From: Blasia pusilla
Taxonomy: Eukaryota
Assembly: GCA_050084515.1 (NCBI GenBank)
Contig: CM114271.1
Span: forward strand, 42,718,001-42,782,000
DNA length: 64,000 nucleotides
Direction: 5' to 3'
Each line of letters opens with the position of its first letter. Within the stretch, counting starts at the first letter, position 1. Of the stretch, positions 3,001 through 61,725 are shown piece after piece. The notes beneath the pieces were generated by a model. That model worked only from the letters and a program-made list of their open reading frames with translations, had not been told where the DNA came from and searched no databases. A program made the translations under genes and the position numbers.

Positions 3001-4589
3001 TGGCCCAAGTACCTTGATATGCTAAATGTTCAATTTAGCATATAATGCTATGTGACTAAGACTGCAATTTTAAGACTTTTTCGATCCATGATGTTTTTGC
3101 CTCCATAAATTGTACGATAAATGAAATTGGACATTTCATTTATCGCCGTGTGCCAATTTTGTTTTACTCACTTCGTGTAACTTTATCGAACTTCTACCCA
3201 TACATAGCTAGCATACTCATGCATTTTTACATCTATTGGAGTTACCATACATTTTTACAACTACTTCTTCTTCTTGCACACAATTGATACGTCCATCTTG
3301 GCAGGTCCTATGGAGATTACTCACAAAAAAAAAACACAACTATACTCACCAATCACCAAGAGTTCTCTTTCATTCCTCCATCCCCTACTTCGGCCACTCA
3401 ATATTTTATTTACAACTACTGAATTATTTTATTTACTACATTTTGTCCCCCTATTTGTTACACCCGTCATACACTCCCCCAATTTGTTCCCTCTCCAGTG
3501 TGTTCCCTAATTACTTTCTCTACCATCACCTCTCAAAGAACTGCACGTACACAATAAGATAGACGCAATTTCATAATAAAATACAGCCTAAAAAATAAGT
3601 ATAGAGGCTTAGGTCATTGTGTTTGAAAGTTTAGGAAGGCGTGCAACCAACACTACCACCAAAAAGCCGTGAATTGAGGGACATATTCACAGCACTTGGG
3701 GCCTCATTCTTGTTTTCTTTCGAATAATGCGTATCCTAAGCACTCGTTGTCAACTTTTTATTCATGAGGAAGCCATGCGCACCTGGTTCTGCCGGTGGCT
3801 GGTAACCGGAATCAAAGCAGTTGGGGAAGAGGGAGCCGGGTGCATGCCAGCATGGCAGCTACAATGACGCCACGTGGGAGGTGGGGAGTTAAAGCTCGAC
3901 ACGCGGTTGGCAGTTCGCTCGCCAAGTGTTGACGCACGGTGGCACGTCCATGGTGAACCCTCCCTCCGACAGGTTCTCCCTATACGTGGCTCCGAGTTCT
4001 GGAGGCGGGCACGTCGGTGGCCGCCGAGATGCCCAGCCAAATCTCTCCCTTTTGAGGGATTCCGTTGCCATGCTATGCTGCCGGTTCCCTTGTCGCTCTC
4101 ATGACGTGGGAGAGTCAATCACAGCCACGCCATCCATGACTTTATCCTCCTTCCTCCTCGCTCTATGCCATCGCAGACATATCCCGTCGTCTCAGGCGAG
4201 CCCATTTCGGCCCAATCACCAGCCGCGAATCCAGTGGTGCCCGCTGGCATGTCTGGTTCTAAAACTCAACCGCATACACTACCACGGAGAGCGAGAAATA
4301 CAGTGACCGTCCGATTGTGGGGGAAATGCTGGAGATCCTGACAGCTCAGATTTGGAAGGTGTTCGTCTAACTCAACTGCGGTCAGTGGGACATAAAGAGA
4401 AGAGAGGACAATAATGATGGTGCATATGGAGAACAAAGAGGATATAATATTCTCCGTGGATAAAAAGGGTCCCCTAAAATAAAAATAGAGAAGGATTTAA
4501 AAAACAAAGGTCAACAAACGGGTGCTGCTAAGGGGGAAGATGCACTTCGATAAAAACGAGTGATGGAAAACCCATCGGAAGTACAAAAG

Positions 4590-29095: not shown

Positions 29096-30868
29096 TGTCA
29101 TTCACACAAGTCTAAGATCCATCTAACTATGAATCCTAAAATCTCTACACATGAATGACTGGACAACCCCAATTCCCCCCCTAACTGGTGGTTAGGTCCC
29201 TCTAACTCTAGATAGCCTAAAAAACAAATCTAAATGCTATGCATCTTTTTGGTGCTAAGATCAGGAGGTTGGGTGTTATGTCTCCCTATCGTTAGTCACC
29301 TTCCTGCAATCAATTACATCAAGAGTTGTCTTGTAATATACCTATCACACCTATATACTTCTAGGACAAAACCAACGTCAATGAGGATTCAAGTCAAGAG
29401 GCGGTGTCAAACACGACATTTTCCATCCTCGAGAACACCCATCACAGACTAGCATTATGGTTACTTCTCTAAGAGACCCACAGAAAATGCATCTCAAGCC
29501 TGCAAGAACAACTTCCAAACTTGGATCAATACTCCCATCTATGTTCGGAAGATGACATGGCGCACAATTACGCACATGATATTTCCAAACGGTATCATCA
29601 TGACCCTCTAAAACAAAGACTCCTAGCCTTTAGGTAAAATCTCTGAAAATCGTAGAACAATGGGTTCTGTTGTCACGTCTAATGTCGTTGGCGCCATTTG
29701 CTACACGTAGACATAATTTCCAAGATGGAATTTTTGAATCCCTTGTCGATAGTCTCCTCCACGCGTAGTCGCATATCTTAGAGTATCACAATGTTGAACG
29801 ATAGCCAAGTTCTCAACTGCCATAGGCATAACTCTTGAAAAGAGGTCAGCCCAATAAGAACACACTCTCACCCATCCATGTGGATAGTTGAGGACAATTA
29901 CCTCAACCACATCTTGCCGAATAGTTGACGATAACTGTGGCTCTCTCCCATAGAGCAAGAAATATGATGAAAATGATGCCAAGGATGCTTACCGATTGAA
30001 GCAGAAACCCATTTCCAACCACAACAACTGTAGGTCCCAATCTCCTAAGTGTCTTCTCCACTCCATACTTGCGCAATCCTCTCTTCATCGTCTGCACAAC
30101 TCTCTCTACCAAACCATCTGCCTCCATATGATCCCGAGAGTCGTACAATGATCGATCAGCGCTTGAGCATACAAAACCTGAAAGTCATCCCTCAACTCAG
30201 TATTGTGGTCTGTCAACACCTTTGCTAGTGCATCGAAATGACTTAGCACTTAATCAAGAAATGCATAAGCCGCTCCCTCACTCGACCTGTCCGGAAATCC
30301 TACCAACTCAATCCACTTGGAGAAGAATCCACTTGGGTGGTATCGGGGCAGTGAACGATGCCCACACCCTATCACATACAATGCATCTGGTTACAAACTG
30401 CTGAACATCAATATGCATACCACGCCACCAATACTAAATTTAAAGCAAGCTATACATACACTTGACTCCAAAATGACCAAACTCCTTGTGAGCATGTCTC
30501 ACGACTTGTGCTCGCAGCGAAGTATGCAACACCATCCGTACTTGTCTATCCTCCCAAACTTGAAGCACATCCGACCCCTCCCACTTGAACCTCTTGACTT
30601 GTTGTAGGACTCGACCCCACTCTTTAGAATCCACTATGCTCGCTAAAATACCAATGCGTAGCTACTCCAAGACCATCTCATCATCGTGGATGTCTCGAGT
30701 CCCTGTCGAGTCCTCACTAGCAGTTGGATCTAAGGACTGACCATCCAACATTCCTCCTAGACTGGATGCCTCCTGTTGACCTAACATAGCCAACACACAC
30801 AAATAGGTAGATGCGTGGCAACTCGACACCATCTCCTCATCACTCTCACCATGCCACCTAGCTCCAAT
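29096..30868 (-). mobile_element. 3' relic of a PHD-integrase Ty3/Gypsy element related to 51734-61411
   Basis: Integrase fragments (VVRHAHKEFGHFGVK, ADGLVERVVQTMKRGLRKYG, DTLRYATTRGGDY), degenerate PHD (CIFCGSLREVTIMLVCDGCSRGWKMSCLTPPLD), PPT at about 29173-29182, then 76 bp ending in ...TGACA at 29096. Confidence 0.88.
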
Positions 30869-42080: not shown

Positions 42081-44005
42081 TGTCGTGCGCATATATATCG
42101 CTACACAACATACATCGCAGGTCACATCTACACCACACAACACCGATCTTCCCCACACACGGGTAGATCCACACATGTACAGAAATCAACTCATACATAT
42201 ACATGGAGATCACACAACGTAGTAAAAAACGGCACACCCGGCCTAAAACTCCACTCCTCAATCTACATCGGCATATCGAGCCTCGTCCACCCTACGCTAT
42301 CAAGGAATCCGGACGCTAGCACCCTAGTCCTATCTCACACACATACAAGAGAGGTGCTCCAAGGGCCCAACATGAGAAAGATGGCTTAGGAAATCCATCT
42401 TCCTCTCTTATATAGGGTTGAGAAGAACCAAAGGGCTCTTCCCCTCAAAATAGCCATCCCCTTGGTAACCTGCGCGCTCAGGTTACCAGGGGCGGGTGAC
42501 TTGGTCAACAAGTCATCCGGTTGTGAAAGACCTCAACATGAAAGTTGTGAGAAACGACGTTCCTGACACAATAGACCTATCCTCAACCTCATTCGACACC
42601 GTGGGACAAAGTTACACTCAAGATAGTCCGTTGGCTCCTACGCCCTATCCACGATAGATCTCGGGCTATCGGCTACTCAGATGTGACAGTTGTGGTACGC
42701 ATACATATCGCTACATAACATACATCGTTGGTCACATCTACACCACACAACACGGATAGATCCACACATGTACAGAAATCAACTCATACATATACATGGA
42801 GATCACACAATTGTCCCCCTAGCTGGAAGTTCGATTCCCCTAACTCCAGATAGAAAATATCACATCTCTTTGACATGGCCTACTACCCTATACACATCTC
42901 GGACACAGCCATCATCCCGTGGGAACTACATAAAAGGGGGGTTCCAGACATGACATATGCTACCCTCGAGAACAACCATCACATACCAATATGGTGGTTG
43001 CACCCCTCGCAGATCTCCACAACATACACCCCAAGCCTGTAAGTACCACTGCCAAGCTCGGATCCACTGTCCCGTCTACGTTCACAAGATGACATGGCGC
43101 ACAATTGCGCATATGATCCTTCCAAACCATACCATCCCGTCCCTCCAACATGAGGACTCCGGTCGGTAATACCTCACGCACACGAAGGATCGTGCGCCCT
43201 GCAGTGACATCTAGCGTCGTGGGTGCCGCCTGCTGTAAATACACGTAATCTCCAAGATAAAACCTCCTAATCCCTGGACGATAACCTCCTCCACGAATGG
43301 TTGCATACCTCAATGTATCTCTATGCTGAGCAATAGCTAAGTTCTCAAAGGCCAAAGGCATAACTCTACGAAAAATCTCCGCCCTCTGAGAACACGGTTG
43401 TATCCACACATCTGGATTATCAAGATCTAACACCTCCGCCATGTCACTCCGAATAGCTGCAAGTAAATCTGGCCTCTCTCCCAAAGAGCAAAAAGTATGG
43501 TGAAAATGATGCCAAGGATGCATGCCAACTAAAGCGATAACCCATAGCCAACCATGGCAATTGTAGGTCCCACTCCCTCAATTGTCCTCGCTGCAAGCCA
43601 TACTTGCGCAATCCTCTCTTCACCATCTGTACTACTCTCTCCGCCAACCCATCCACCTCAATATGATCTCTGGACGTGGTGCGGTGATCTATCAACGCCT
43701 GATCACACAAGGCCTAAAACTCTCCCCTGAACTCGGTACCCTGGTCAGTCAACACCTCCGCCGATGCACCAAAGTGACTAAGCACACGATCTAGAAACGA
43801 ATAAGCTATTCCCTTGCTCGCCTTGTCCAATAGTGCCACCAACTCTATCCACTTGGAGAAATGCTCCACCATGACCAACACATACCTGTGATGATGCCCC
43901 ATCAATGGCAAAGGTCCCGCAAAGTCTAAACTCCACCGATAACCTAAACCCATAATTGGCAAAGGATGTAATTGCGGAGTGGGAGCATTGAAGGGTTTAG
44001 TGGCA
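42081..44005 (-). mobile_element. 3' part of a second copy of the DNMT/PHD Ty3 family (integrase, PHD, PPT, A-B-A repeats)
   Basis: High nucleotide similarity to 59480-61411. A1 42691-42809, B 42219-42688, A2 42081-42216, terminus CGACA at 42081. Confidence 0.93.
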
Positions 44006-44049
44006 TGCCATACATCACATGCCATACATCTGGCATACATCATGCCATA

Positions 44050-47000
44050 CACTCGCCGCATCTAAGAACACTGCCGGGCCGATCCATGCGTGCAATTGAT
44101 GTGCACTCGTCACCACGCGGGACCTCTCATGTAAATGTTGCAAGATTCGCATCATCTCCCAAAACAACCTGGACCGAGTATCAGCTAACCCGCTATCTCG
44201 TCCCGCACTTGATTGGACCTGACACAGCCAACCAGCAATGACCAAGTCTATGGTCCCTACCCGCTCCAAGTCCTGCGTCCCCAACAATGAAATGTCCCTC
44301 AGTAGGGAACTCTGGTAACCCTGAATGGCGGATGCAGACAACAAGTCGGGAAAACGGAGGCGTAATAGCGACACATGGTGAAGTGAAGCGTGCCTTGCAA
44401 CATCATCAATCTCCACATATAGGTACTGCTACACACACACTCCAATGTGCAAAACAACAACTAATCCAATGCTGATCCCTCCAAAGAGATCCAACATCCG
44501 AATACCCTCCTCTGGGATGCACTACAAAATCGCGAGGGGGGGAGATGTCCAAAGGGGTCATAGCAGCACTCCTGCCTACCGGGGGTTCCTCTGACTCTAG
44601 TGCAAGCGTCTCGCTCCACGCGGTCTGCACATGCTTAGTGGCTAAGCGTCAAAGCTCCTCAGTCGAGCCCCAAAGCGGCACCTCTTTTCCACGGACTGAT
44701 GCGGCTTCCATGACACTCCTCTCCATAAAAATGCCAAGAAGGGGAGTATCCTCTACATGGACATGTCCCTCAATCAAATCACTAGGCCAAGTGATGGCAC
44801 TCCTAAATGCTGCTAAGGTCGCCATCTCTCTTGGCCGTCGCTCAATCACTACACCTGTGAATCGAACGGGTAATGAGCTAAGGCGCCCATCACTTGACTT
44901 CCATCCTGGTCTGTAAGATGCTGACTCCTCCCAGTAATTCAGGGAAAAACCCATCGGGTATAACACTGCTCCACCAACCAAGATGTCGTAGGACTCTACA
45001 TCAGTCACTATCGCCTTGGCTCGCACCACGGACGAATCTGTAGGATGTCCCAGGCGAATCCTCACCACGACCTCTTGTCGGGTGATATACTATGTGGTAC
45101 TCACTCCACCCAAGGATGTCTATATCCGGAATGGACAACGCTCCACATCGGCTCTCGTCAAGCCCAATCCTCTGAATGACGCTTTCCCCAACATCAGGGC
45201 TGCGCTCTTGAATCCAACAAGACGAGCTGCGGACTAAAAGCTCTATCTCCGGGACTGACCAACTGGAAGACCTCTCCTCGGTTATCCAGCAACACAACAC
45301 TAAGAGAAACCATGGCACCCTCTATCGTGGGTCTAGCGGGCATCTCTGCCATCCTAGCAGCCGCAGCCTGCCATGAATCTAACGTGGATGGCCCGAGCAT
45401 ATGCTCCAAGGGCATGTCCATCATCTCCTCTGCAATCACCTCTGAACGTGATGTTGAAAATCCAACTCCACGCTCACATAGCATAGCGGCCAGCCAAAAA
45501 ACCTCGACGGGCGTACCTCCCAACGTCACAACATCGGAAGAAGAAAATAAAGGAGCGTGGTACACAACAGTGGCTGCCCCCAACATCGTGCTTGACACAT
45601 GCCCCTCCTCAACATCAGAAATAGGAGTCGTCACACTCGCTTCTCCCATCGCCCTCCGTGCTTGGACACCAACAACATCACCAACTCTCCAGGAACTCTG
45701 ATCAGGACCCATTGATGACGTCCTCATCGGCTTGGACAACGTGAAAGATTGATGATGCCAAGTCTATTTCTTGGCTTCCCCTCACTATGGATCCAACTCT
45801 TCGGCTGCTCCACGCGTCACAACTATGGCGGCCTCCATCTAGGCAACCCCGCACATCCAACCAGGATCCTCCATATCTCTGGCTCCTCCATATGATGTCG
45901 ATGCCATGGATCCAACATCGGGTAATCTCAATGCCATAGCGGCAATCTGCTCCTGTAGCTGATGTATCTGAGCAGCCATCCTAGCCTCACGCTCAGCGTC
46001 TCCCTCGACGCGTCTAGGTGGTGGGACTCTACCTCCTCCACGGGCAGCTCCACCTCCTGTCGAGCAGCTCCAACTCCTCGTCCCCCAACGGGACCACCTG
46101 GTGCACAATCTCTAGGCCCACCCAGACCGGCTACTCGCTCTGATGCCCTCTCTAGCCCTCGGTCCGGACGTAACTCATGATGTAAACTAAAACACCTGGC
46201 GCATGTATGACCATACCTCTGACAATAGTCATACGGATAACCTCTTGGTGCATCACCATCTCCTCCTCCATGTTGAGGCACACGTTCATGACCCTGACGA
46301 GTGCAATCACGCTAATGATGGGCTCCACCACATGACCAACAAGTAATCGTAGGCGACTGTTGCTGAGCCGCATATGAAGGCGCAGGTCTCTGTGGCATGG
46401 CCTCTTGATATCCTCCCTGAGCTCTGGGTGCCACAATCAACCTATCTCGGAGTCCACGTTGCTGCACAGGTGGTGCAGACAATCGTGACTGCTCTCGCCC
46501 AAAACCCATGGAGGCTACGTTCTCCTCCACCACCTTGCGCTCAATATTCTCGGCGGTCTTAAAAACATCTCTCAATGTAGGGGAGGTGTTCATAAGAAGC
46601 ACCCCCTCCCGCACCCGTGTCCGTAGGGTCCTGTCCAGCATCGCGTACCATGACTGGATAGCTTGACCCTCTATCACCCCCTGAGTGACGTTGATCAACC
46701 GGCGCAAGCGTGTGTAAACCTCATGCAAACTCTCACCCGGGCGCCTCTCGAAGTCGTGGATGCTCCGCAACTTCTCCGTTCGTACCCCTTGGTAGCTCGC
46801 CCTCAACTCAGCGAAGAACTCAACCACGGGGTTGAACCTGAGACGAACCCGACTAGATGGTGCAACTGCTCTAGTGCGAGTGACCCTTCCTAAAATATCA
46901 CTTGTGGAAGAGGAAGTAGACTCTCCTGACTCCTCCTCCTCATCTAGGAATGGCTCCGTCCATGACATATAGTATGGATCATAATAGAGTCGCCATGCCT

Positions 47001-49444
47001 CAATCTCCTAGGCATATCTGTGGGAGAACTCATGGTAATCGTCCATGGGCGCCCCCTCTAAATGCTAGAACATACCATTTCATGTTGTAAACGGGTTAAA
47101 CTCTATAGAGTTCCTAACCCGTTGTGAGTCACACCAACTCCTAAACTCGGCAATGAAGTTGTGTAGCTCTATAGTGGTGCCTATAGCACCCAAAAACCTA
47201 CGCGGTCCTCTACCCCGGTTGTCCATCTTGTACGCCCAATTGGTAGGATCACTCATTGTGGATCACTAACACACTCCTCTACACACTCCTTCTCGTCTAA
47301 AGATGACCACAGAAAGAGATCGAGGTGGTCTCTCACGTGGAGACCCTCGAAACCTCGCACCACTCCGGGTAAACCTTCCAGATCTACTCTTAGGTCCACT
47401 ACCCCGCCTCTCAAAAGCTTGAAAGGACGCCGTGATGGCCCTCGTGCCCCTCTCACACGATCACTCTTAATCTCGCGAGTAATCCCTCAATCACTCAAAC
47501 TAAACATGCGGCACTCAATCTACACTCTCTCACTGAGACGTGTGCTATGCGGCAATAAGCAACGTGGTGCGGAAAATCACTGATCTATTGTCTCATCGAT
47601 AAACCATCCTCAACTTTGGACACCCCACACAGGTCTATGTCCCCTAAACCCATACATCATTGATGCTCCTAGCATCAATATAGGAACCCAATATCCCAAA
47701 TAACTTCCCAATACCCGGAAATCCCTCACACGTGCAAGGTAAGAGACTAGAATGGGTAACCTGACAATAATGTCGATGTCGCTCTTCGGCAACTGCAAAT
47801 CTCGACCCCAACTCGGTCATGAAGACAATCAGCAACACGTACTCCTCTCGTACTGACGCTGCTCAAACCTCATCGATGTGCGGTGTAGGTCCAGCGCTCC
47901 AATGCGGCATTGGCGGCACAGAATGGCTGCAAAGGGCACGACACTCGGGAATGGGGTGCGGCACGCGGCGGCATACCCTCCTCAATCAGAAATTCACATG
48001 CTTTGCTCCTTAGTGAAGGAGCGGCTCCGCGACCGAGACGATGCGGTGCGACCATGAGCGGCACGACGCAGCAATTGGCGATGCGTTGCGGCTACGGACA
48101 TCACGGCACGATCCTCGATCGTCGTCGAGTGGCTACCAATCACAACATAGCAGCATGAAATGAAAACTCAAACACCATAACCTGAGGTCATCTGCCATCA
48201 CTGGTTGATGAAAAAAATGCGATGACGGTGGCGACGCAAGTCAGAGAATCAACGGTCGTCGTAGAAGACCCTCCACTCCGTAATGGCGGCAATGGCAACC
48301 CAAGGATGGACAACGGACGAACGCGGCTCTCACCACCGCTATGCAGCGGCGGTGGCCGACGGTGGACGGTGGACCGTTGAGAATGAAAGTTGACCGTTGA
48401 TGGTGACGGCCGATTGTTGACGACGGACCGCCGATGGCAGACCGTTGACGGTGACTATGACGGCAACGATCACCGCTGTCGTGGCGGTTGGTTTAGGGTT
48501 TGAATAATTTAACCCTAAAAATTGCCTTGCAAGATTGAAAATAAATTTTTGGTCGTAACTCCAAATTGCGCACCTTCTATTGTACAGTGTGCACAGCTTC
48601 ACGATCTACAACGGCGTCAAAAATTATTTTGAATCGAACATTCCAATAAAAATTGATAGGGATTGTCGTAAAGCCCAATTCTCTTTCCCCTTCACAAAAT
48701 TTGGTAGCGCTTCCGCGCTGATTTCTCCCAAAAAAAATGTAAAAGCTGTGAAAATATAAATCAGCAAGCTACATGGTGCTTCCGAGAGCACCGGCACGGG
48801 GCAACCCGCCTCCATACTCAATCCCTATAAAAAATTGGGCAGTGCTTCCGCCCCACTTTTCCACACAAAAAATCACAAGTAAGCAACTTTTGCTCTTGTG
48901 AGCACTTCCATAAACTGCTGAACGGGGATACGATCTCCAACCTGCAAAACTAGCGAGTGACCACAGAGCTCCCCCACGAAGCTCTCTCACTCACTCATTC
49001 TCTCTTTGTAAAATAAGATCCAATATCTCTCACAACACCATAGTTCTCACATGTCTCTCTCAATGTCAAACCAAACCCACTCTCTTAATGAGAGGCTTGG
49101 GTTACACACACAAGGCAAGCAAGACCATAGCTCAGCCGCCTCATGCCAAGAGGTTCAACAAAGAGGGAATGAGCTCTCAAGCTCTCTCTCCTTGAGGTAT
49201 ACCCCTCCCCTCTCCCAAGCTCTCTCCATGGTAACCTATGCTTCCAAGTCACCTCCTTGGCTCTTGACCTGATGTAGGAGGTCAAGGGACACTTACCAAA
49301 AATATAAAGTCAATGATATACTCAAAATAGTATTGACCTAAAATAGTAAGTTCCTCAATATGGCTCCAAATGAGCCGAAATGAAGGGGAAACCTGCTCTG
49401 TCAAGTTTCCCAGGGCCTCAAGAGATCATCCTCCACCTATTGAG
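44050..49444 (-). mobile_element. 5' half of a diverged sister-family (Y) element: partial LTR, leader, gag, protease, N-half of DNA methyltransferase
   Basis: LTR end CA at 49007-49008 and primer site 48996-49006. gag from about 47226 (MDNRGRGPRRFLGAIG..., YQGVRTEKLRSIHDFERRPGESL, CWSCGGAH, CQRYGHTCARC), protease (LVLLDSRAQP, YDILVG), DNMT motif I (IRMLDLFGGISIG) and motif IV (LVIAGWLCQ). Multiple stops and frameshifts. Confidence 0.9.
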
Positions 49445-49871
49445 TTGATGCTAATCCTCAAAGATACCATTCTCCTTACGTAGAAGTCAAATCCCTTGCA
49501 CACTTTATTGATTTTTCTTCTTTATATGAATTGTGGATTTTTTTTTTTGCTCTTGATAGTTGAAGGTCTAAAATCCTTGGGCTTGTTAGGCGTTGGTATC
49601 ATAATCCTACATGCGGGTATGAAGCAAAACTGTTCGCTTTGAAGTAATTTGGCGATTCAGTATGTGTTCAAAAATATTTTTCAATAGTAAATCGGATGAT
49701 AAGTATTTTGTAGGTATGTCAAAAGACACACCCAAGGAGAAGAATGTTTCTAAGAATTAAATGCTTAAGATAGAAAGAGGGTCACAATTAGGTTGCGTCG
49801 TTTCGGGCAAGAAATTAAGTAATAACCTAGAAGGCTCCAAGAAAGATAAGCAATCATATGCGTGTTTGCTC

Positions 49872-51733
49872 TGTCAAGTCTTTTAGGATAGATCGGTGAG
49901 ATCTAGTAGAGCGCCTTTGTGAGTACTAGAGGACAGGCTCAATAGGTCAAGGATGGCCTGTTGAGGCCCCGGGAAACCTGAGAGAGTAGGTTTCCCCTTC
50001 GTTTTGGCTCATTTGGAGCCATATTGAGGAACTTACTAATTTAGGTAAGTACCATTATGAATATATGATCGAGTTTATATTTTTGGTAAGTGGCACTTGA
50101 CCTCCTACATCAGGTCAAGAGCCAAGGAGGTGACTTGGGAGCATAGGTTACCATAGAGAGAGCTAAGGAGAAGGGAAGATTATACCTCAAGGAGAGAGAG
50201 CTTGAGAGCTCATTCTCTTTTTGTTCAACCTCTTGGCATAAGGCTGCGGAGCTATGGTCCCTTGCCTTATGAGTGTTACCCAAGTCTCTCATAGAGAGAG
50301 TGGGTTTGGTTTGACATTGAGAGAGACATGTGAGAGTGCACACATGTGAGAACTATGGTGTTGTGAGCGAGATTGGATCTTATTTTACAAAGAGAGAATG
50401 AATGAGTGAGAGAGCTTCATGGGGGAGCTCGCTCACTCACTCATTGCTTTGTTGGATTTTTATACGAGAGAGTGGCATGTGGAAGCGCTGCCCAATTTTT
50501 GATAGAAATTGAGTATGGGGAAAAATTACTCAATACCGGTGCTCTTGAGCACCATGTAGTTTTCTGATTTGTCTTCTCAAAGGTTTTACATTTTTGTTGG
50601 GAGCAATCAGCGCGGAAGTGCTGCTAAATTTTGTGTAGTAGAAAGACACGTTGGGCTTTACGACAATCCCTGTCAGTTCTTACAAGAATCTTTGATTCAA
50701 AATATTTTTTGACACCATTGTAGATCATGAAGCTTTGCACGCTATGCAGTAAATGATGCGTAATTTGGAGTTGCGAGCAAAAAGTTATGGTCAATCTTGC
50801 AAAACTGCCATTGCTAGGAAATTTTTAGAGTTAAATTGTTCAAACCCTAAACCAGCCGCCGCTGGCACGTCGGCTGTCGCCGTCATAGTCACCGTCAATG
50901 GTCCGATGTCACCATCAACAATCAACCATCACACTCAATGGTCCACCGTCCACCGTTGGCCACCGCCGCTGCCTAGCGATGTTGAGAGCCACGTTCGGCC
51001 GTTGTCCACCCTTTGGTTGCCATTGCCGCCATTACTGAGTGGAGGGTTCTCCACGACCACTGTTGATTCTCTGACTTGCGTCGCCACCACATACTTTGTT
51101 TTGGCCGCCACCGTCATCGCATTTTTGTTATCAACCAGTGATGGCAGGTGACCTCAGATTATGGTGTTTGAGTTTTCAATTCATGATGTTATGTTGTGAT
51201 TGCTAGCCGCTCGATGACGATCGAGTACCGTGCCGTGACGCCCGTAGCCGCAACGCGCCACTGATTACGGCGTTGTGCCGCTCGTGGCTGCACCGCATTG
51301 TCTCGATCGCGGAGTCGCTCCTTCACTAAGGAGGAGAGTGTGTGAATTGCTGATTGAGGAGGGTATGCCGCCGAGTGCGGCACCCCATTTTTGAGTGTCG
51401 TGCCGTTTGTAGCCGTTCCGTGCCGCCATTGTCGCACCGGATCATTGGACCTGCATCGCACATTGAGGAGGTTTGAGTAGCGTCAATACGAGAGGAGTAC
51501 GACTTCTTGATTGGAGGAGTTGTCTTCACGATCGAGTTGGGTCGAGATTTGGAGTTTCCGAGCAGCGATATCGACATTATTGTCAGGTTATCCATTGTAG
51601 TCTCTTACCCTGCACGTGTGAGGGATTCCCGGGTATTTGGAAGTTATTTGGGATATTGGGTTCTTGTGCTAATGCTAGGAGCATCAATGATGTATGGGTT
51701 TAGGGGACATAGACCTGTGTGGGATGTCCAGAG
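49872..51733 (+). mobile_element. LTR segment and leader of a second sister-family (Y) copy, interrupted by the 51734-61411 insertion
   Basis: Inverted homologue of about 47615-49444. Probable start TGTCA at 49872, LTR end TTTTACA at 50389, primer site 50390-50400. Confidence 0.85.
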
Positions 51734-52216
51734 TGTCACATCTGAGTAGCCGATAGGCCGAGATCTATCGTGGATAGGGCGTAGGAGCCAGCGGACTATC
51801 TTGAGTGTAACTTTGTCCCACAGTGTCGGATGAGGTTGAGGATAGGTCCATTGTGTCGGAACGTCGCGTTTTCGGCGACTTTCATGTTGAGGTCTTTTAC
51901 AGCCGGGTGACTTGTTGACCAGGTCACCTGCCCCTGGTAACCTTTGCGCGCAGGTTACCAAGGGAAGGGCTATTTTTAGGGGAAGAGCCTTTTGGCTCTT
52001 CCTAACCTATAAAAGAGAGGAAGATGGTTTTCCTAAGCCATCTTTCTCATGTTGGGCCGTTGGAGCACCTCCCTTGTATGTGTGTGAGCTAGGACTAGGG
52101 TGCTAGCGTCCGGATTCCTTGATAGCACAGGGTGGACGAGGCTCGATATGCCGATGTAGATTGAGGAGTGGAGTTTTAGGCCGGGTGTGCCGTTTTTACT
52201 ACTCTTTATTTTTACA
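51734..52216 (+). repeat. Terminal repeat B1 (promoter-containing LTR part, TGTCAC...TTTACA)
   Basis: Direct repeat of 60811-61289 with roughly ten differences, several of them CpG transitions. Confidence 0.95.
52008..52014 (+). promoter_or_regulatory. LTR TATA box
   Basis: TATAAAA 31 nt upstream of the inferred transcript start at 52039, also present in the other B copies. Confidence 0.75.
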
Positions 52217-52227
52217 TGAGAAAGATG
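52217..52227 (+). promoter_or_regulatory. Self-priming type primer-binding site
   Basis: TGAGAAAGATG directly after the LTR-terminal CA is the exact reverse complement of CATCTTTCTCA (52039-52049). It lacks the TGG start of a tRNA PBS. Confidence 0.85.
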
Positions 52228-55200
52228 TCAGGGGGCTAGTGGAAATTTGTTGTTTGCAGGTAGGCAAGCGAGTTGCCTTGGTCGGGAGCCCCTGGAGACG
52301 CGTGTGTGACGTTTTGTGTCATTTTTCTATTCGGAAGGCCGTGGGCGGAAGCGCTGTCTGTTTTTCTCAGATTTTGCTAGTGCGGATTGATGGGGGACAA
52401 CAGCCGAGTGTAGCGTGTGGTGGGGCGTCGGGTGTACGCAAGTGAGGGTGTCGAGAGAGAGAAGCAAAGGGCAGGTTTGGGTCTTGCAGCCGCCAGGGGG
52501 CTGTCAAGTAAAGGCGGCTAGGTTAGGTCGCGAAGTCTAGGGTTAGGTCACGGGCGAGGGACGGCGGACGGGCTGGGCGTGGACAGCAGACGGGCTGGGC
52601 GCGGACGGCAGACGGGCGCGGACAAGTAAGGGGCGTGGATAGGCGAGGGCCGCGGACGACAGAAGGACGCGGAGGGGCGCGGACACGCGGACGGGAGAGA
52701 ATGGAGGGGCAAGGGGCACCCCCTCACTCCGCGCATTTACAAGGGCCGCATAGGGCCGCGTGTCCTGCCCTCCCCCCAAACCTGGTGGCAGAGTGAGATT
52801 TTGCACGGAGATTATTTTGGAAGACCGAACTGACTGTCAGCAAGGTGGGTGAGTTACACCGACAGTTTGCGGGGGAGAGTTGACGATGGAGTATCTGTTG
52901 ACGGGAGGATCGACGTGTTGGTCGAGGGGAGTGTTATGTGGCGGAGATTGTCATATCATGTAGAGGAGTGCATATTGACGGTGCAGTCGGTTGGAGGGCG
53001 TGATCAGGTTACCCATTCGAGTCCCTTTTCCCGCACTTGTCGTGTGTGATTGAGAGTGCTAGGTATCGGGTAGTAGGTGGTGCTAGATGGGTGCAGTGAT
53101 GGTGACGAGTGTAGATTCTTTTCATGTGTAGCATGTTGGTGGATATACGGCGGTTGCCGAGTAGGGGTCGCGTGTATGACCCGAGAGAGTGTCGCTAGGT
53201 TAGGTGAGTCAGTTGGGAGGCTCATGGTGAGCCCGAGTGTTGAGCGTGCGTGAGGCCTGGTATGTCATCACGGGATTGACGTTAGCATAGGTGAGCTAGT
53301 GAGGCGTGTGGGAGACTCTCGGTGAGTCTGAGTGCTTGAGCGGGTGAGACAGGGTTTGTCATCACGGCGTTCTTCCAGGGTTCGGAAGAACGGGGTAGTG
53401 CGAGCAGTGGTAGTGGTGTGCCACGGAGTGGAGTGAGATATCGAGGGATTACCAGTGAGGAGCTCCCTCGATATCCATCCGTGACTGGATCGTCATCACT
53501 GGACACTGGGTCTGGTGACGAGATCACCGACAGAGACACTAGTACTTGGCAGGAGATGGACGACATGGGCCATGGGGGCATGCGTCGTTTCTCGGGTGCA
53601 GTGGGCACCATCGACTTAGATGATTTCATCCGGGAGTTCGACACATGGTGCGACTTCCAGGAGATAGGGACCCCGACACGATTCAACCCTTTCATGGCAT
53701 GGAAGGGGTTGTTCCAGCACTTGGAGGGTCCTCCGATGGATGACTACATGGAGTTTCAATCACTATACTCAGTAGAGATCGATGCCTGGAGGATGTATTG
53801 GGCTCCAGGGTATGTGTCCACTAGTGGTCGCGAGGCATATGATGGGATTGTGAGAGGAGAGAGACCCACACCATCAGCCCGGAGACTAGATGGAGAGGAG
53901 GGTGGAGACAAAGCGATGTGGCAGAGACATCTGGTGGTAGAGGGCCACCCAGCTTCAGCCCCACAGTGGAGTTCTTCCGACAGTTGGGGAAGAGCTACCA
54001 GGGCGTACGCACCGACAAGCTCAAGAGTCTACAAGATTTTCAGCAACGATCGGGTGAGAGTATGAGAGAGGCATTCACACGCATGAGGAGGCTGATCATT
54101 GCTACGTTTGGAGTGACTGAGGCGCAGTCAGTCTAGTATTGGTACGGGGTTCTGGACCGAGAACTACGGAGGAGAGTCCGAGATGCGGTCTTTGATTCAC
54201 AAAGAAAGCCCACATTGAAGGTGGTCTTTGAGTTGTCTGAGCGTATTGAGCTCAACATGAGTGAGGAGCAGGTAGTGACCGCTGGATTTTCTCGAGAGTC
54301 AACGGGTCCACGAGCAGCGGTGACCCCACAGGTGCCACAGCGAGCACCAATACCACGGGAACGGGCCAGTGTGCCTAGAGAGCAAGGCGGGTACCATGAG
54401 CCTATGAGGCAACGACCCGCACCTACATATGTTGCCCAGTAGGGACTGATGTGGTCTTGTTGGACGTGTGGAGGGGCCCATAGGCAGAGGCGCCCACAAA
54501 GCATGGGGAGAGGACCACCAGCGCCTCCGATTGCTCAAGAGCCATAGAGGATGGCCCCACCACAGCACCAGTGTGACCATTGCCACAGATATGGTCATAC
54601 TAGGGATAGATGTTTTGACCTTCGACGAGGGGCACGTCGAGAGGTAGGCCAAGGGCCTGGGGGCGGTCGTCCTGGAGGAGGTTAGGGAGATCTTCCTGGA
54701 CGTGGTGGTAGAGGACCACCACTAGCCAGAGGAGATGGAGCAGGAGCACCAGAGCCGGCGCTTCTCTCACGCATCGATAAGTTGGAGCGGAGGATTGCCG
54801 CCATGACGATGATGCGGCTTAGGAAGGCCTGAGCTGCGGCGGCTAGTGTGACTCAGTCTCTACCTCTTACCCCGACCGGGTGAGGATCTCTCAAATATGG
54901 GATTCATGTGTAGTGCAGCCTAGGTTGAGGCGGTGCGGTGGTGACTGGGTCTGCGAGAGGCACCGAGCCATCGAGAGGTGGAGTTGAGATTGACCCACCA
55001 GAGGGGACCGATGGGCGGCAGGCCAGGGTTCCACAGTCGTTCACATTGTCGGAGGCACTACACACACCATCGATGGTGCCTCGACGACTAGCGGTGCCTA
55101 CAGTTCAGGCACCTACGTCGACGTCACGAGGAGTTGGAGTGACAACTCCTATGCCGGCTCGAGTGGAGTCAGCGTCGACCATAGTGTTGGAGGTGGCCAC

Positions 55201-56269
55201 TAGAGTGAGTCAGACTCCACTATTTTCCGCCATAGAGTTGGCGACGTTGGGAGATGGACCAGCTGAGGTGTTTCGGTTGGCCGTCATATTGTGTGAGCGT
55301 GGAGAGGTGACTGCTTATTGTTCAGAGGTAGTTGAGGAGGTGGTGGACTTGCCCTCAGAGCCGGTGCTTGGGATGTTCCCCACAGAGTCATGGCATGCGG
55401 CGGCGGTGAAGTTGGTAGATATGCCAGCTCGACCGGCCATAAAGCGAGCTGTGGTGACTCCTTGAGTAGTGTTTCTGGATAACCGAGCTGGAGTATTTCG
55501 CTTGGTTAGTCCGACGGGGACAGTATACCACCCGTAGCACGTCCTACTTGATTGCGGAGCGCAACCCTTGATGTTAGGGAAGGCGGCGTGTTTAGCGTTG
55601 GGGTTACGGAAGGCCGACATTGAGCCTTGTCCCTTCCAGATACAGACCTCGATTGGGGGCGTATCACCCACTCAGTATATGGCTCGACAGGAGATTGTTG
55701 TCAGAGTCCAGCCAGAGCATGCGACGGATAGTGCTATGGTGCGTACACGTGCGATTATGACACCAGCTGAGTCGTACGATGTGTTGGTGGGGAGTACAGT
55801 GTTATATCCCCTAGGATTCATCCTTGACTTCTGGGAGGAGACCATTGCTTATCGGCCAGGATGGCGGTCAGGTGACGGTCGGATGAGTCAGTTACCCATG
55901 CAGTTTGCGGGACGAGGTGGTCGATCACGAGGCGAGTCTGTGACCAGGTTGGCGGCTTTCACAGGTAGTGTTAGCTGGCCAAGAGAGTTGTTGGAGGGGA
56001 ACGCACATGCGGAGGATGTCCCAGTAGCCGATAGTCCCACGGAGAGACAGGCCATGGCGGGTGTCTCTTCCCATGTTAGCGATGCCTCTTCACCATTATG
56101 GGGTACGACTCGAGAGCTACAGAGGAGTGCCGACGATCTCGTGAGGCAGGCGTGGAGTCATGTTTTTATCCCAGAGCAGCGAGAGTCACGTGGCGATCGG
56201 GCTCTTGGAGTGGAGACGATGACCCCACTAGATACCACACCTGTTGTGTGGCAGTGCCCAGAGGAGGGT

Positions 56270-57215
56270 GTTAGGATGTTAGATCTCTTCGGAGGGATTA
56301 GCATCGGATTGGCTGCAGTATTGCAGGCGGGCATACGGGTGCATCAGTACCTTTATGTGGAGAGAGATGAGACCGTGCGGCGAGTATCATTACGTCACGT
56401 GGCGAGATTGGTCCAGAGGTATCCTGAGTTGTTGTCGGTATTTGCAGTACGGGGATACCAGCATATGCTACCCGCCGACATATCTTTGGTGGGGGCGCAG
56501 GATCTGGATAGAGTTGGCACCATTCATTTGGTGATTGCTGGATGGCCATGTCAGGGTCATTCATCAGCTGGCCGAGGATTTGGATTGCAAGATCCGAGGT
56601 CAGGGATGTTTTGGGAGATACTGCGAGTAGTATGACACTTGCAGGAGAGTCAGATATGTTCTCTAGTGTACATTTTGGAGAACGTGCCGTTGTTGGGAGA
56701 TACTCGTGCATGTGTGATGACGAGTGTACATCAGGTGAGGTCCTGGTTGGGACATGCTGTGTTGTTAGATGCAGCGAGAGTTGGGTCATGTGCCCATCGT
56801 CCACGACTGTGGTGGACGAACCTGATACCATCAGAGGTACTGAGTCGAGCCTACAGTGGAGTCCAGAGAGCACCACATCTCACAGTGGATGCTATTTTAG
56901 GCTCAGCGCGTCGATCTCAGGTGGTGACACGGGATGATAGACCATCGTTGGCCATGGCCAATAGGGTGGGGAAGTTGAGGGCAGCCTTACCTACGTTGGT
57001 GAGCTTCCCAGCATCCCATGCCTTTTGTCAGGGAGGGCCAGGCATGATTTAGGATGAGGTGACCGGAGTATTGGAGGAGCCTACAGCAGATGAGCGCGAG
57101 CGCGCCATGGGGTTCACTACCGGTACTACGGCGGTGCTAGGGATGATTTAGGCATCACGGAGACAAGTGTTGGGGCAGGCGATGGACCTCAACTGTCTCA
57201 CATGGATAGTCAGCC
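56270..57215 (+). pseudogene. DNMT3-like C5 cytosine methyltransferase domain inside pol
   Basis: Motif I VRMLDLFGGI, II YLYVERD, III ADI, IV LVIAGWPCQGHS (catalytic PC), VI YILENVP, VIII SCAHRPRLWWTN, IX ERERAMGF, X RRQVLGQAMDLN. Same frame as the protease, no introns, three in-frame stops (about 56633, 57050, 57149). Confidence 0.95.
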
Positions 57216-60200
57216 TAGGTATGGCTGAGCAGAGACGGATGCGAGTGTCATCCATGCCGTCACGTCCACGAGTTGGACCATTGCCTACAGGGTCTGTACA
57301 TGCATTGGCTGGGGGCGAGACGAGGAGAGATAGGCACCCATGGACTTCCTGGGACGTCGTTCGAGCAGAGAGTGCAAAGGCGGCTAGAGTAGCACATGTT
57401 CATTTTTCGGATGTGGAGCATGGTGTAGGAGGTCAGAGTGGAGTGGTTGTTGCGGAGGTGGCTAGGATTGCTACATAGCAACCAAAGCCGGAGGTTGCGT
57501 CCTCTCCGAGTGAGGTCACGATGGAGACTTGGGAGCCTGTGATAGGTCTCAAGTTGATAGGAGGAGAGCGACGGCGAGTTCATAGGTTTTAGAGAGGGTA
57601 TGTCAGTTGTTTTGCCTTCAGTATGAGAGACTTGGGTACGCTGAAGGGTCCCGGGATACGGATTGAGTTGGCTAGTGATATGCCGATCTTTGTCGACCCC
57701 TGGTATTTCGATATGGAGCGAGCCTTGATTTGAGCGAGAGTCGGGACTTGTTGGAGGCGGGACTTGTGGAGTTATCACATGGGGAGTATGCATATGCCGA
57801 GTCATGCCAAAGAAAGAAGGATATGTATGGCAATTGGACGGATAGGCGGATGTGTGGAGATTACCGTCCTATCAACCCGTGACGAGGTCGATCGGTATGC
57901 CATGCCTACTCTGAGGAGATCTTTGATGCGGTAGGGCATGCAAAGATCTTCATGACTTTAGATCTCCGTCTTTGGCTATCATCAACTTCCTATCAGGTTG
58001 GAGGACAGGAGAAGACATCGATTCAGGGGATAGATCGGTTCGGGAGAGATTGCTTGTATCGAGTGGCGGTTCTTACCATTTGGGTTGAAGAACGCGCTCA
58101 TGGAGTTTCGAGAGAGTAATGGATAGGATTTTGGCTGGCTTGGATTTTTACGATGTTACATAGATGATATTCTTATCTTGATTCCACGGTTGAGGAGCAT
58201 GAGCGACACTTGGAGGAGGTGTTTGGCGATTGCGATTACATGGACTGAAGTTACATCCAGCAAGTGCAGATTCTTTCAGAGCAGATTGAGTACTTGGGAC
58301 ACACCATATACCCGAGTGGGTTAGGCGTTCAGCAGACGAAGGTAGAGGCTATTGCGCAGATTCCACGCCCCTGGATGTGAGTCGAGTCCGAGCATTTCTT
58401 GGGTGGCGAACTTCTATCGACGGTATGTCAAGGGTTTTAGTGCGATCGCAAAGTCTTTGACCTTGTTGACGAGACTTGATCGGTGTGGTTGTGGGGAGAT
58501 GCTCAGGAGCGAGCATTTCAGAGCTCAGGGACAGTTGACGTCCTCACCCATTTTGAGAGACCGGTTAGGGGTCGCCCATTCCAGTTACATACGGATTGGA
58601 GCATGTTGGGTCTAGGAGCATTGCTTACTCAGAGGGATGACGAGGAGAGGGAGTTCGTTGTGGCTCACGCGAGCTGATCGAACAACATTGCAAAGGTGAA
58701 GTAGAGCTCCTACGAGGGAAAGTGCTTGCTTGGCTGCAGTCTGGGCCATGGCACATTTTAGGTGCTATTTATTCGGCAACCCTTTCACACTTATCACTGA
58801 TCATCAGCCGTTGAGGTGGTTGATGGAGTCCGACAAGCTTAGGGGAAAGCTTGCCAGGTGGGCTCTATTACTACAGGAGTATGAGTTCGAGGTGGTTCAT
58901 AGGCCAGGTCGGCTGAACCAGGATGCGGATGGGTTGAGTCGTAACCCATGTCCGAGTTAGAGAGACGACACAGGAGCTCGATGGCACGGAGAGAGTGATG
59001 AAGAGATGGTGCCCTGTTGGCATGCATCTGCCTATCTTTGTTGGTTGACTATGGCAGGTCAGCCACAGGTGATGACTCCAGTGGTGGGATTGGATGATAA
59101 GTCTTTGGATCCGGAGGTTAGTGAGGAGGCGACAGGTGGTCGTGATATCCATGACGACGTAGAGGTTGTGGAGTTCTTGCGCACTGGCGTCATTGCGAGT
59201 ACAGTGAGTGCTAGGGAGCGGGATCGGATCCTACAGAGAGCCAAGAGGTTCAGGTGGGAGGGGACTCACATTTTACGGGTATGGGGAGATGGTAGGATAC
59301 GAGTGGTACCTCATCCTTCCCAGCGAGCACGTGTAGTGAGACATGCCCATGAGGAGTTGGGACATTTTGGAGTAAAGCGTACTTACAGCTTACTTCAGGT
59401 TCAGTATTGGTGGCGCGGCATGCCCTCTTGGGGGCATAGTAGATTTGTGGCGGATGTATGGTATATGACAGAGTGCGAGCATCCTTCAATGCTCCCACTC
59501 CGTAGTTACATCCTTTGCCGATTATGGGTTTAGGTTATTGGTGGAGTTTAGACTTTGCGGGACCTTTGCCATTGACATTGACAGGACGTCATCATAGGTA
59601 CGTGTTGGTCATGGTGGAGCATTTCTCCAAGTGGATAGAGTTGGTGGCACTACCAGACAAGGCGAGCGAGGGAACAACTTATGCGTTTCTAGATCGTGTG
59701 CTTAGTCACTTTGGTGCACCGGCGGAGGTGTTGACTAACCAGGGTACCGAGTTCAGGGGAGAGTTTCAGGCCTTGTGTGATCAGGCGCTGATAGATCACC
59801 GCACCACGTCCAGGGATCATCCTGAGGCGGATGGATTGGCGGAGAAAGTGGTACAGACGGTGAAGAGAGGATTGCGCAAGTATGGCTTGCAGCGGGGATA
59901 GTTGAGGGAGTGGGACCTACAGTTGCCATGGTTGGCTATGGGTTATCGCTTTAGTCGGCAGGCATCCTTGGCGTCATTTTCACCGTACTTTTTGCTCTTT
60001 GGGAGAGAGCAGATTTTACTGCAGCGATTCGACGTGACATGGCGGAGGTGTTAGATCTTGATGATCCAGATGTGTGGGTGCAAGCATGTTCTCAGAGGGC
60101 AGAAGTTTTTTGTAGAGTTATGCCTATGGCCTTTGAGAACTTAGTTATTGCCCAACATAGAGATACATTGAGGTACGCGACCATTCGTGGAGGAGGTTAT

Positions 60201-60452
60201 CGTCCAGGGATTACGAGGTTTCATCCTGGAGATTACGTGTATTTATAGCAAGCGGTACCCACGATGCTAGATGTCACTATAGGGCGTACGATCCTACGTG
60301 TGCGCGAGGTATTACCGACCGGAGTCCTCATGTTGGAGGGACGGGATGGTTTGGTTTGGAAGGATCATGTGCGCAATTGTGCGCCATGTCATCTTCTGAA
60401 CGTAGATGGGACGGTCGATCCGAGCTTGGCAGTGGTACCTGCAGGCTTGAGG

Positions 60453-60588
60453 TGTATGTTGTGCGGATCTGCGAGGGGTGCAGCCACCATGTTGGTATGT
60501 GATGGTTGTTCTCGAGGGTGGCATATGTCATGTCTGACCCCCCCCTCTTGATGTGGTTCCCACGGGACGATGGATGTGTCCGAGATGT
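60453..60588 (+). other. PHD finger (C4HC3) at the integrase C-terminus
   Basis: CMLCGSARGAATMLVCDGCSRGWHMSCLTPP/LDVVPTGRWMCPRC, with one +1 frameshift in a C run. Confidence 0.93.
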
Positions 60589-60661
60589 GTATAGGGTAGT
60601 AGGTCATGTCAGAGAGATGTGATATTTTCTATCTGGAGTTAGGGGGATCCAACTGCCAGCT

Positions 60662-60672
60662 AGGGGGGCGGT
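60662..60672 (+). promoter_or_regulatory. Polypurine tract
   Basis: AGGGGGGCGGT immediately before TGTGTG (start of repeat A1). Equivalent tracts at about 42813-42820 and 29173-29182 on the minus strand. Confidence 0.8.
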
Positions 60673-61411
60673 TGTGTGATCTCCATGTATATGTATGAGT
60701 TGATTTTTGTACATGTGTGGATCGACCCGTGTGTGGGGAAGATCGGTGTTGTGTGGTGTAGATGTGACGAGCGATGTATGTTGTGTAGCGATATGTATGC
60801 GCACGACAGCTGTCACATCTGAGTAGCCGATAGGCCGAGATCTATCGTGGATAGGGCGTAGGAGCCAGCGGACTATCTTGAGTGTAACTTTGTCCCACAG
60901 TGTCGGATGAGGTTGAGGATAGGTCCATGGTGTCAAGAACGTCGTTTCTGATGACTTTCATGTTGAGGTCTTTTACAGTCGGGTGACTTGTTGACCAGGT
61001 CACCTGCCCCTGGTAACCTTTGCGTGCAGGTTACCAAGGGAAGGGCTATTTTTAGGGGAAGAGCCTTTTGGCTCTTCCTAACCTATAAAAGAGAGGAAGA
61101 TGGTTTTCCTAAGCCATCTTTCTCATGTTGGGCCGTTGGAGCACCTCCCTTGTATGTGTGTGAGCTAGGACTAGGGTGCTAGCGTCCGGATTCCTTGATA
61201 GCACAGGGTGGACGAGGCTCGATATGCCAATGTAGATTGAGGAGTGGAGTTTTAGGCCGGGTGTGCCGTTTTTACTACTCTTTATTTTTGTTGTGTGATC
61301 TCCATGTATATGTATGAGTTGATTTTTGTACATGTGTGGGGAAGATCGATGTTGTGTGGTGTAGATGTGACGAGGGATGTATGTTGTGTAGCGATATGTA
61401 TGCGCACGACA
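60673..61411 (+). repeat. 3' terminal repeat block A1-gc-B2-gt-A2
   Basis: A1 60673-60808 (136 bp), GC, B2 60811-61289, GT, A2 61292-61411 (120 bp, with a 16-bp deletion between tgtgtgg microrepeats). Confidence 0.95.
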
Positions 61412-61725
61412 AGAGTTAAGGATGGTTTGTCGATGAGATGATAGATAAGTGATTTTCCGCACCACGCTGCTTGTTGCCGCACAACACATGTCTCAGTGAG
61501 AGAGTGTAGATTGAGTGCCGCATGTTTAGTTTGAGTGATTGAGGGATTACTCGTGAGATTGAGAGCGATTGTGTGAGAGGGGCACGAGGGCCATCACGAC
61601 GTCCTTTCAAGATTTTGAGAGGGGAGGTAGTGGACTTGAGAGTAGCTCCAGAGGGTTTACCTAGAGTGGTGCGATGTTTCGAGGGTCTCCACGTGAGAGA
61701 CCACCTCAATCTCCTTCTATGGTCG
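61412..61725 (+). mobile_element. Continuation of the interrupted sister-family (Y) leader / gag N-terminus
   Basis: Reverse complement of about 47305-47615. It resumes exactly where 51733 stopped. Confidence 0.88.

Follow-up and report, generated by a model that had tools for sequence, protein, structure and literature searches.

A Split-Repeat Ty3/Gypsy Element of Blasia pusilla with a Predicted 14-nt Self-Primer and a Predicted Attachment Site inside its LTR

Here we report that a 9.7-kb insertion in a 64,000-nt stretch of Blasia pusilla DNA (GenBank assembly GCA_050084515.1, contig CM114271.1, positions 42,718,001 to 42,782,000 of the forward strand; hereafter the window) is a Ty3/Gypsy element of the order Gag-PR-DNMT-RT-RH-integrase-PHD. 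It occupies 51734-61411 with AGAG on both flanks, has a hairpin region at its 5' end and carries split repeats in the order B1-PBS-coding-PPT-A1-GC-B2-A2 (Table 1). Its RNA is probably primed by a 14-nt sequence of its own LTR, and the ends of its cDNA joined into a two-LTR circle that is reopened at an internal palindrome. A wider reading seems to us evenly poised, namely that in a widespread green-plant Gypsy lineage the integrase attachment site has shifted into the LTR, a 14-nt self-primer has evolved independently, and integration takes place by rule via an end-joined two-LTR circle, each copy keeping one circle junction. The initial annotation of this region implied a normal two-LTR element; the ends do not form an LTR pair, and the split-repeat architecture, which is a more unusual feature than the hairpin, had been overlooked.

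Table 1. Features of the split-repeat element and of related elements in the window
Feature	Position	Strand	Remarks
Target-site duplication AGAG, left	51730..51733	.	From sequence
B1, left repeat (promoter U3 part, R, U5)	51734..52213	+	Starts TGTCAC, ends TTTTT without CA
TATA-like box TATAAAA	52008..52014	+	From sequence; putative function
Predicted 14-nt self-primer	52039..52052	+	From pairing, copies and fossils
Predicted primer-binding site (PBS)	52214..52227	+	Starts directly after the B1/B2 repeat
C5 cytosine methyltransferase match (PF00145)	56477..56809	+	In broken polyprotein, between protease motif and RT
RNase H (PF17919/PF17917)	58492..58882	+	Frameshifted; RT just upstream
DDE integrase: H2C2 zinc domain PF17921, core PF00665 (rve)	59315..59823	+	Pfam
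PHD finger (PF00628)	60453..60548	+	After integrase; E 9.2e-05, just under the cut-off here
Polypurine tract (PPT) AGGGGGGCG	60662..60670	+	Putative function, from position
A1, first copy of short repeat	60671..60808	+	Ends CACGACA
Internal palindrome GACA-GC-TGTC at A1|B2 junction	60805..60814	.	Predicted integrase attachment site
B2, second copy of B	60811..61289	+	From repeat comparison; ends TTTTT, runs into A2
A2, terminal copy of A	61290..61411	+	16-bp deletion; B2|A2 is the predicted join of two cDNA ends
Target-site duplication AGAG, right	61412..61415	.	From sequence
Family-2 B1 (starts TGTCAAG)	49872..50400	+	Predicted primer 50211-50224, PBS 50387-50400
Second family-2 B1, 5'-truncated	48996..49444	-	Predicted primer 49158-49171, PBS 48996-49009
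A1-B2-A2 end of chimeric element	42081..42810	-	Family-2 5' part, family-1 integrase end
Family-3 fragment	29130..30865	-	Integrase, PHD, PPT, broken A

B1 and B2 are identical at 470 of 477 aligned bases; this identity ends exactly at the first base of the primer-PBS duplex, and A begins exactly behind the PPT. Two direct TG...CA LTRs are absent from the integrated ends of the copies, which read B...A-B-A or B...A, with A starting GTTGTG. When 30 loci were collected with a query ending at A1, 18 went on into B2-A2, 8 stopped at A1 and 4 were broken, and none of the 30 5' ends had A before B. U3-only queries gave, for the family of this element (family 1), 18 flank-B-PBS, 7 A-B-A, 3 solo B-A and 2 broken loci, and, for a second family in the same genome, 13 flank-B-PBS, 9 A-B-A, 5 scored as flank-B-A and 3 unclassed; the order A-B-PBS was found in 0 of 30 loci in each family. 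A third family of this genome has the same split-repeat build. First-look candidate counts in the genome ranged from 850 to 5405 per query, so the copies number in the thousands. Target duplications of 4 bp flank all copies with both ends visible (8/8 B...A and 7/7 B...A-B-A, two of them with one mismatch) in a census of 20 fetched copies, in which four lack the 5' end and one (L147) has an extra broken B-A in front. Among metagenome relatives, 47 of 80 loci were examined: 7 have both repeat pairs and 9 have A1/A2 only, and 4 distant relatives have an ordinary LTR build, a TGGTATCAGAGC-like PBS of the tRNA type and no duplex with their own sequence.

Three further features were noted among the copies. 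The 16-bp deletion in A2 of the window copy (61290-61411) lies between TGTGTGG repeats and recurs in A1 or A2 elsewhere (L032-L034, L038, L049, L054, L074), by way of either a slippage hotspot or a second template. Two short B...PPT-A copies (L128 and L129, 2350 and 1376 bp) have perfect 4-bp duplications and no PBS behind B, and are possibly non-autonomous products that inserted directly. Rarely, an A, a broken B-A or an inverted A stands ahead of B-PBS (L147, L106, L123, L124, L125).

Coding domains were identified by Pfam searches of the three forward frames of the window copy, with broken frames read with X at stops. The order PR-RT-RH-IN with a DDE integrase was found, and these frames gave no Pfam match to a tyrosine recombinase or a chromodomain. 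The PHD finger (PF00628) passes the cut-off in two other copies in the window. In copy L142, which has a natural open reading frame, the methyltransferase motifs PCQ and ENV are present and RT matches Ty3 RT (E 1.8e-46). Among named RTs, the closest come from two liverworts, Calypogeia (75-78%) and Marchantia (66-73%, PF00145 being present in some), followed by Closterium and Haematococcus. A quick RT tree places every PHD, DNMT and split-repeat row in a single 67-row clade (SH-aLRT 99), and all 7 chromodomain rows fall outside it, in a row set without named Tf1 or Tcn1 entries. A Klebsormidium 'putative retrotransposon protein' (P0103), which is not named KnitGypsy, lies inside the same clade. 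In the metagenome loci (L173-L252), a DNMT-like region was seen upstream of RT in 36 of 80, and the lineage is common in these samples.

The self-primer of the fission yeast element Tf1 is 11 nt long, and the initial annotation proposed the same mechanism here, with 11 nt pairing behind an LTR that ends in CA (52216-52217). The underlying pairings were reproduced. The sequence at 52214-52227 matches the reverse complement of 52039-52052 (CATCTTTCTCATGT) at every base, with TATAAAA at 52008, 31 nt upstream of 52039; in family 2, 50211-50224 pairs with 50387-50400 (one G-U; TATA(CC) at 50181) and 49158-49173 pairs with 48994-49009 (one mismatch in 16). The LTR end needed revision: the repeat stops at 52213 and its second copy matches no further, so the PBS is the whole 14 nt from 52214 instead of the 11 nt after CA, and the predicted primer is likewise 14 rather than 11 nt long.

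The duplex is not a chance product, as the annotation had argued, since none of 300 shuffled repeats gave 14 bp (best, 8), and it holds across copies, with 14/14 pairing in 29 of 30 family-1 loci and 13/14 in the other. For family 2, 16 of 30 loci pair at 14/14 and 27 at 12/14 or better, with 3 not scored; the plus-strand family-2 copy in the window is weak when taken alone, its 7 unbroken Watson-Crick pairs being matched by 48 of 300 shuffles. For family 3, 5 of 11 pair at 14/14 and all 11 at 13/14 or better (G-U counted). Each of the three families thus has its own 14-nt PBS matching its own B (CATCTTTCTCATGT, CATTCTCTCTTTGT and CATCTCCTTAGGAT). In 11/11 B1s (2 from the window and 9 from metagenomes, with the boundary set by analogy for L177, L192 and L218), the best partner of the first 13 nt past the boundary sits 27-33 nt behind a TATA-like motif, with 10-13 Watson-Crick pairs and four unrelated primer sequences. 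Two PBS positions differ between metagenome loci L176 and L177, and both are compensated. The PBSs of families 1 and 2 differ at 7 positions, which, judging from the sequences, could largely reflect a one-base slip in a CT run; those of family 3 and the metagenome relatives are real primer/PBS replacements.

Some loci preserve longer inverted LTR sequence behind the PBS, which we refer to as fossils. By pattern search, 21 loci carry the B end and PBS followed by inverted LTR sequence from upstream of the primer; the mirror pattern, with a somewhat more variable motif, had 2 matches at the level of the pattern. In L382, the 36 bases past the PBS continue the reverse complement of its own LTR across the TATA box, giving an exact match of 50 nt in all, and the inverted stretch then joins the start of A via GTTG. 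Among 20 fetched fossil loci, 9 lengthen the PBS by 7-8 nt and then re-enter the leader, and 11 carry 24 to at least 115 nt. The nine shorter cases (L383, L384, L388, L390, L391, L394-L397) are B1s with 7-8 nt of added primer-side sequence, a 21-22 bp duplex and normal leader thereafter, and represent either one lineage or recurrent events. Under chromosomal template switching, the mirror event should be equally frequent, yet the counts are 21 and 2; sequence has therefore flowed from the primer site into the PBS. On sequence evidence, the fossils are a trace of primer-PBS pairing, in the direction that reverse transcription predicts. With the primer site copied into the PBS, covariation between them is enforced by copying, as opposed to arising through independent compensation.

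The fossils may have formed when the plus-strand PBS end folded back, or when a longer RNA served as primer. Some reach more than 100 nt upstream of 52039, so that the primer 5' end is not fixed by fossils alone. A primer that is derived from the LTR without being the capped 5' end at 52039, having been cut from an RNA with upstream U3 (the 3' B2 copy or read-through), would account for the inverted LTR stretches, 24 to at least 115 nt long and extending across the TATA box, in 11 of the 20 fetched loci and in L382, and for RNA-seq depth being highest over U3. We consider it improbable: pairing ends at 14 nt, 27-33 nt behind the TATA-like motif in all 11 B1s, as if the RNA begins there; a plus-strand PBS end folding back on its own LTR makes identical fossils; and the fossils are 21 among thousands of copies.

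Host tRNAs were screened against the PBSs of the three families, using 37 genes with 11 anticodons (40 fetched of 63 listed), a partial set from which iMet, Trp and others are absent. The best PBS complements are 5, 6 and 7 nt, and no PBS in the tested families begins with TGG. No tRNA genes were found in the 64-kb window, and an Rfam scan of 48500-53000 at E<=1 gave no match. Priming by a host tRNA or tRNA fragment, with the inverted repeat incidental and the fossils chromosomal quasi-palindrome template switches, draws on the partial coverage of the screen and on the mirror fossil at 2 loci, by which chromosomal switching may occur. It is scarcely credible given that no PBS starts with TGG, that tRNA complementarity ends at 5-7 nt, that each of three families in a single genome has a PBS matching its own LTR, and that fossils run 21 to 2 in the direction of reverse transcription. 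Self-priming in the manner of Tf1 is thus well supported by the third family, the metagenome relatives, the coincidence of boundaries, the fossils and the lack of a tRNA match in the partial set. What does not carry over is membership in the Tf1 group, given the PHD finger, the missing chromodomain and the split repeats.

RNA folding and expression were examined for the same region. In the window family-1 copy, the minimum-energy fold contains 10 of the 14 pairs, the first 10 being favoured and the last four at 0.08 or below. The corresponding pair values range over 0.24-0.78 for L010, 0.45-0.91 for a family-2 copy, 0.83-1.0 for family 3 and 0.74-1.0 for L215; in the plus-strand family-2 copy of the window, a local hairpin is preferred over PBS pairing. 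In Tf1, pretzel duplexes flank the PBS, according to the accessible part of one preprint (bioRxiv 2022.12.06.519325). The corresponding 3' flank duplex was exceeded by 1 of 300 shuffles each in families 2 and 3, by 127 and 33 in family 1 and by 28 in L215, and the 5' flank duplex beat shuffles in no family tested. Three RNA-seq runs gave no start-site pile-up at 52039 or 50211, which such libraries rarely show. Sense reads span the A|B junction; depth is greatest over U3 and drops after about 50300, a drop confounded by an indel at 50317 and therefore set aside for locating the 3' end of the RNA. The family-2 B (49872-50400) shows strong sense transcription in all three runs (depth 120-340, reads from many copies), and these reads mostly have A upstream and therefore come from element 3' ends.

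The two integrated ends of the element are the two halves of the palindrome GACA-GC-TGTC. This palindrome is kept in the three families and in relatives at 43-63% protein identity, while the interiors of A and B differ. The A|B spacer of 21 junctions is AC in 8, GC in 7 and GT in 6, and the AC and GT variants would fit CHG deamination of one inherited GC in CAGCTG. Derivation of the spacer from flanking DNA, as in IS circles, was considered and rejected, as only AC, GC and GT were found in the 21.

The B2|A2 junction is of another kind. Among 19 junctions not selected on the junction, 10 are precise and 9 have a PBS or PPT remnant, 1-6 extra bases, or deletions; L074 retains PBS plus leader, and L072 and L086 retain PPT remnants. 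A search with the exact junction pattern, which overlooks mutated copies such as L147, gave 7 matches, of which 4 read A1-B2-PBS remnant-A2. In sequence, B2|A2 resembles an end join of the type found at 2-LTR circle junctions. PBS and PPT are likewise retained at circularised HIV-1 ends and Tf1 cDNA ends, and the integrases of foamy virus and HIV-1 cut palindromic 2-LTR junctions, as described in the accessible parts of these papers (PMC11042837; PMC1180852, PMC4372172). A fixed, inherited B|A junction was also considered; it was apparent only when the query held the junction, and junctions collected without that selection vary. Within one copy, A1 and A2 have 25 minor alleles in common, where 5.4 would be expected (32 elements; reached in none of 10000 shuffles), and A2 is therefore remade from A1 each cycle, against which it counts that in several copies A1 and A2 differ by the same 16-bp deletion.

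A DIRS/PAT-like route, in which the RNA spans B2-A2, an inherited B|A junction splints circle formation and the hairpin is employed otherwise (packaging, promoter), would match the repeat order of split-direct-repeat elements as given in the accessible text of PMC5890265, as well as the copies in which A1 and A2 differ. This route is already disfavoured and very improbable. Private alleles are common to A1 and A2, B|A is variable with PBS and PPT remnants, the repeat boundaries are the PBS and PPT edges, and the element has a DDE integrase and 4-bp duplications.

In standard LTR reverse transcription, the minus strand starts from the PBS and the plus strand from the PPT. In the route that we propose, transcription would start near 52039 and end in B2, and 52039-52052 would pair with the PBS, as seen in the sequence and the fossils, and be extended from 52213, following a cleavage modelled on that of Tf1. 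Given the repeat boundaries, the minus strand would run from the PBS edge and the plus strand from the PPT edge, yielding a linear A-GC-B-PBS-coding-PPT-A-GC-B, with A-GC-B as the LTR and ends (GTTGTG... and ...TTTTT) without TG/CA. The right end would then be joined to the left to form B|A, a junction pattern that is seen and whose timing is presumed. At the A|B junction that precedes the PBS, integrase would cut CA^GC/GC^TG. The products would be two ordinary CA-3' ends bearing 2-nt 5' overhangs, whose insertion with a 4-bp duplication would leave B1...A1-B2-A2. One-LTR circles, double cuts and later recombination are possible sources of the B...A and solo B-A forms. Both integrase cutting and primer release are predicted steps.

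Of the two identical A|B sites in a two-LTR circle, only the PBS-side one appears to be used. The other permutation, B-A-B-PBS...A, was found in 0/30, 0/30, 0/30 and 0/7 copies, the last set coming from the exact pattern that overlooks mutated copies, and the exceptions with A ahead of B-PBS are L147, L106, L123 and L124. Because the permutation is one-sided, the circle model needs an extra assumption, which may be that second strand transfer is immediately followed by conversion of the PBS-side A|B site to double-stranded form, well ahead of its counterpart. Alternatively, and in our estimate rather unlikely, there is no free circle: the linear cDNA is cut at the left A|B site, both new ends are inserted, and the host repairs the B2-to-freed-A break in the chromosome, with self-priming and the internal site unchanged. 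This predicts the same spectrum of B2|A2 junctions, makes circle formation before integration unnecessary, and, with the site that is double-stranded first being engaged early, agrees with a permutation seen on one side only; it also entails a chromosome break at each insertion, yet 10 of 19 junctions are precise and the target duplications are intact. No circle or linear cDNA was seen, and genome sequence cannot separate the two accounts, fitting both a free circle and a cut linear cDNA with the B|A join repaired after insertion. The end-joined circle is the reading that we prefer.

The element lies among several of its relatives. It is inserted in the leader of the family-2 element with B1 at 49872-50400. 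Two family-2 elements (47305-49444, and 49938-51733 plus 61414-61724) lie head to head about 430 bp apart as a long imperfect inverted repeat, the right-hand one being interrupted by the family-1 copy. On the minus strand, a chimeric element (42081-49444) combines a family-2 5' end, gag, protease and DNMT start with a family-1 integrase end and family-1 A-B-A, and lacks RT and RNase H. Other diverged direct repeats are present at 5680-6047/10148-10455, 26994-27395 and 34858-35396, and no Pfam match was obtained for the window ORFs at 5-15 kb.

In the textbook account, LTR elements integrate as linear cDNA, and circles are either dead ends or a reserve. Thousands of genomic copies here appear to record the opposite, namely cDNA ends without an attachment site that are joined, with the join kept in each copy; primer length, PPT cut and end-joining errors would then be readable directly from the genome. 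If true, this is a natural element with a circle as the normal precursor of integration. The proposed mechanism would account for the unexplained DIRS-like repeats of KnitGypsy-Dnmt3, suggests self-priming beyond Tf1/sushi and TAR elements, and shows a way in which the LTR architecture and the split-repeat one can be converted into each other. An LTR finder that treats B1/B2 as the LTR pair will put the 3' end in the wrong place, overlook the target duplication and fail to report a PBS, and for this reason an abundant bryophyte lineage is likely misannotated.

The element most likely belongs with the streptophyte Gypsy-DNMT3 elements, which are also named in the accessible part of bioRxiv 2026.05.21.726589. 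As described in the accessible text of PMC5890265, KnitGypsy-Dnmt3 of Klebsormidium nitens likewise has Gypsy domains, a C5 DNMT within its polyprotein and split repeats arranged in a DIRS-like manner, which that paper writes as A-coding-B-A-B. That account, as far as it is accessible, gives no primer, attachment site, target duplication or mechanism, whereas the present element, compared with it by description only, has thousands of land-plant copies, a self-complementary PBS, an internal palindrome and a circle-type junction. For this lineage, neither self-priming nor an internal attachment site nor a circle-type junction was found described in the literature searched, which did not extend to subscription papers, theses, Repbase reports and the KnitGypsy supplementary figures. 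Phygy, a bryophyte non-chromovirus Gypsy of about 8.6 kb with a 4-bp duplication, is described in the accessible part of PMC6317226 with a tRNA-Trp PBS in 81%, an NCGN target and no extra domain listed; none of the last three holds here, where the PBS lacks TGG and the duplications are varied.

With Tf1/sushi elements, including plant Tcn1, the present element shares a PBS complementary to the LTR just behind the TATA box, without a tRNA (bioRxiv 2022.12.06.519325, PMC6317226), and with Tf1 the PBS/PPT remnants at cDNA ends (PMC11042837), so far as these sources are accessible. Their accessible parts and those of related papers also record self-priming as predicted for Tcn1 and TAR in plants (PMC6317226), a Selaginella Tcn1 without a clear PBS and a Chlamydomonas Gypsy with PHD (PMC2864245, PMC9940879). 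The present element differs from Tf1/sushi in its predicted 14-nt primer, the lack of CA at the U5 end, a PHD in place of the chromodomain, split repeats, and an RT that groups apart from chromodomain-bearing relatives. As in retroviral 2-LTR circles, in which integrase opens a palindromic CA-NN-TG junction to give processed ends, such cutting is predicted here; in retroviruses, the cut site is the end-to-end join itself and the route a side route, according to the accessible parts of PMC1180852 and PMC4372172. Here, by contrast, the LTR itself encodes the palindrome, which is present in the RNA, the predicted end join is at another position, and almost all copies seen fit the route.

The repeat order is also that of PAT/Ngaro and SymbioDIRS-Dnmt3, which are split-direct-repeat tyrosine-recombinase elements. 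A circle intermediate has been proposed for this kind of element. Unlike these, the present element has no tyrosine recombinase match and combines a DDE integrase with a PBS, a PPT and 4-bp duplications. In circle junctions of the IS3/IS911 type, a DDE enzyme acts on two abutted ends with a 2-3 bp spacer; in the Blasia element, in contrast, the spacer is inherited (GC, with AC/GT variants) rather than taken from flanking DNA, and the intermediate is RNA.
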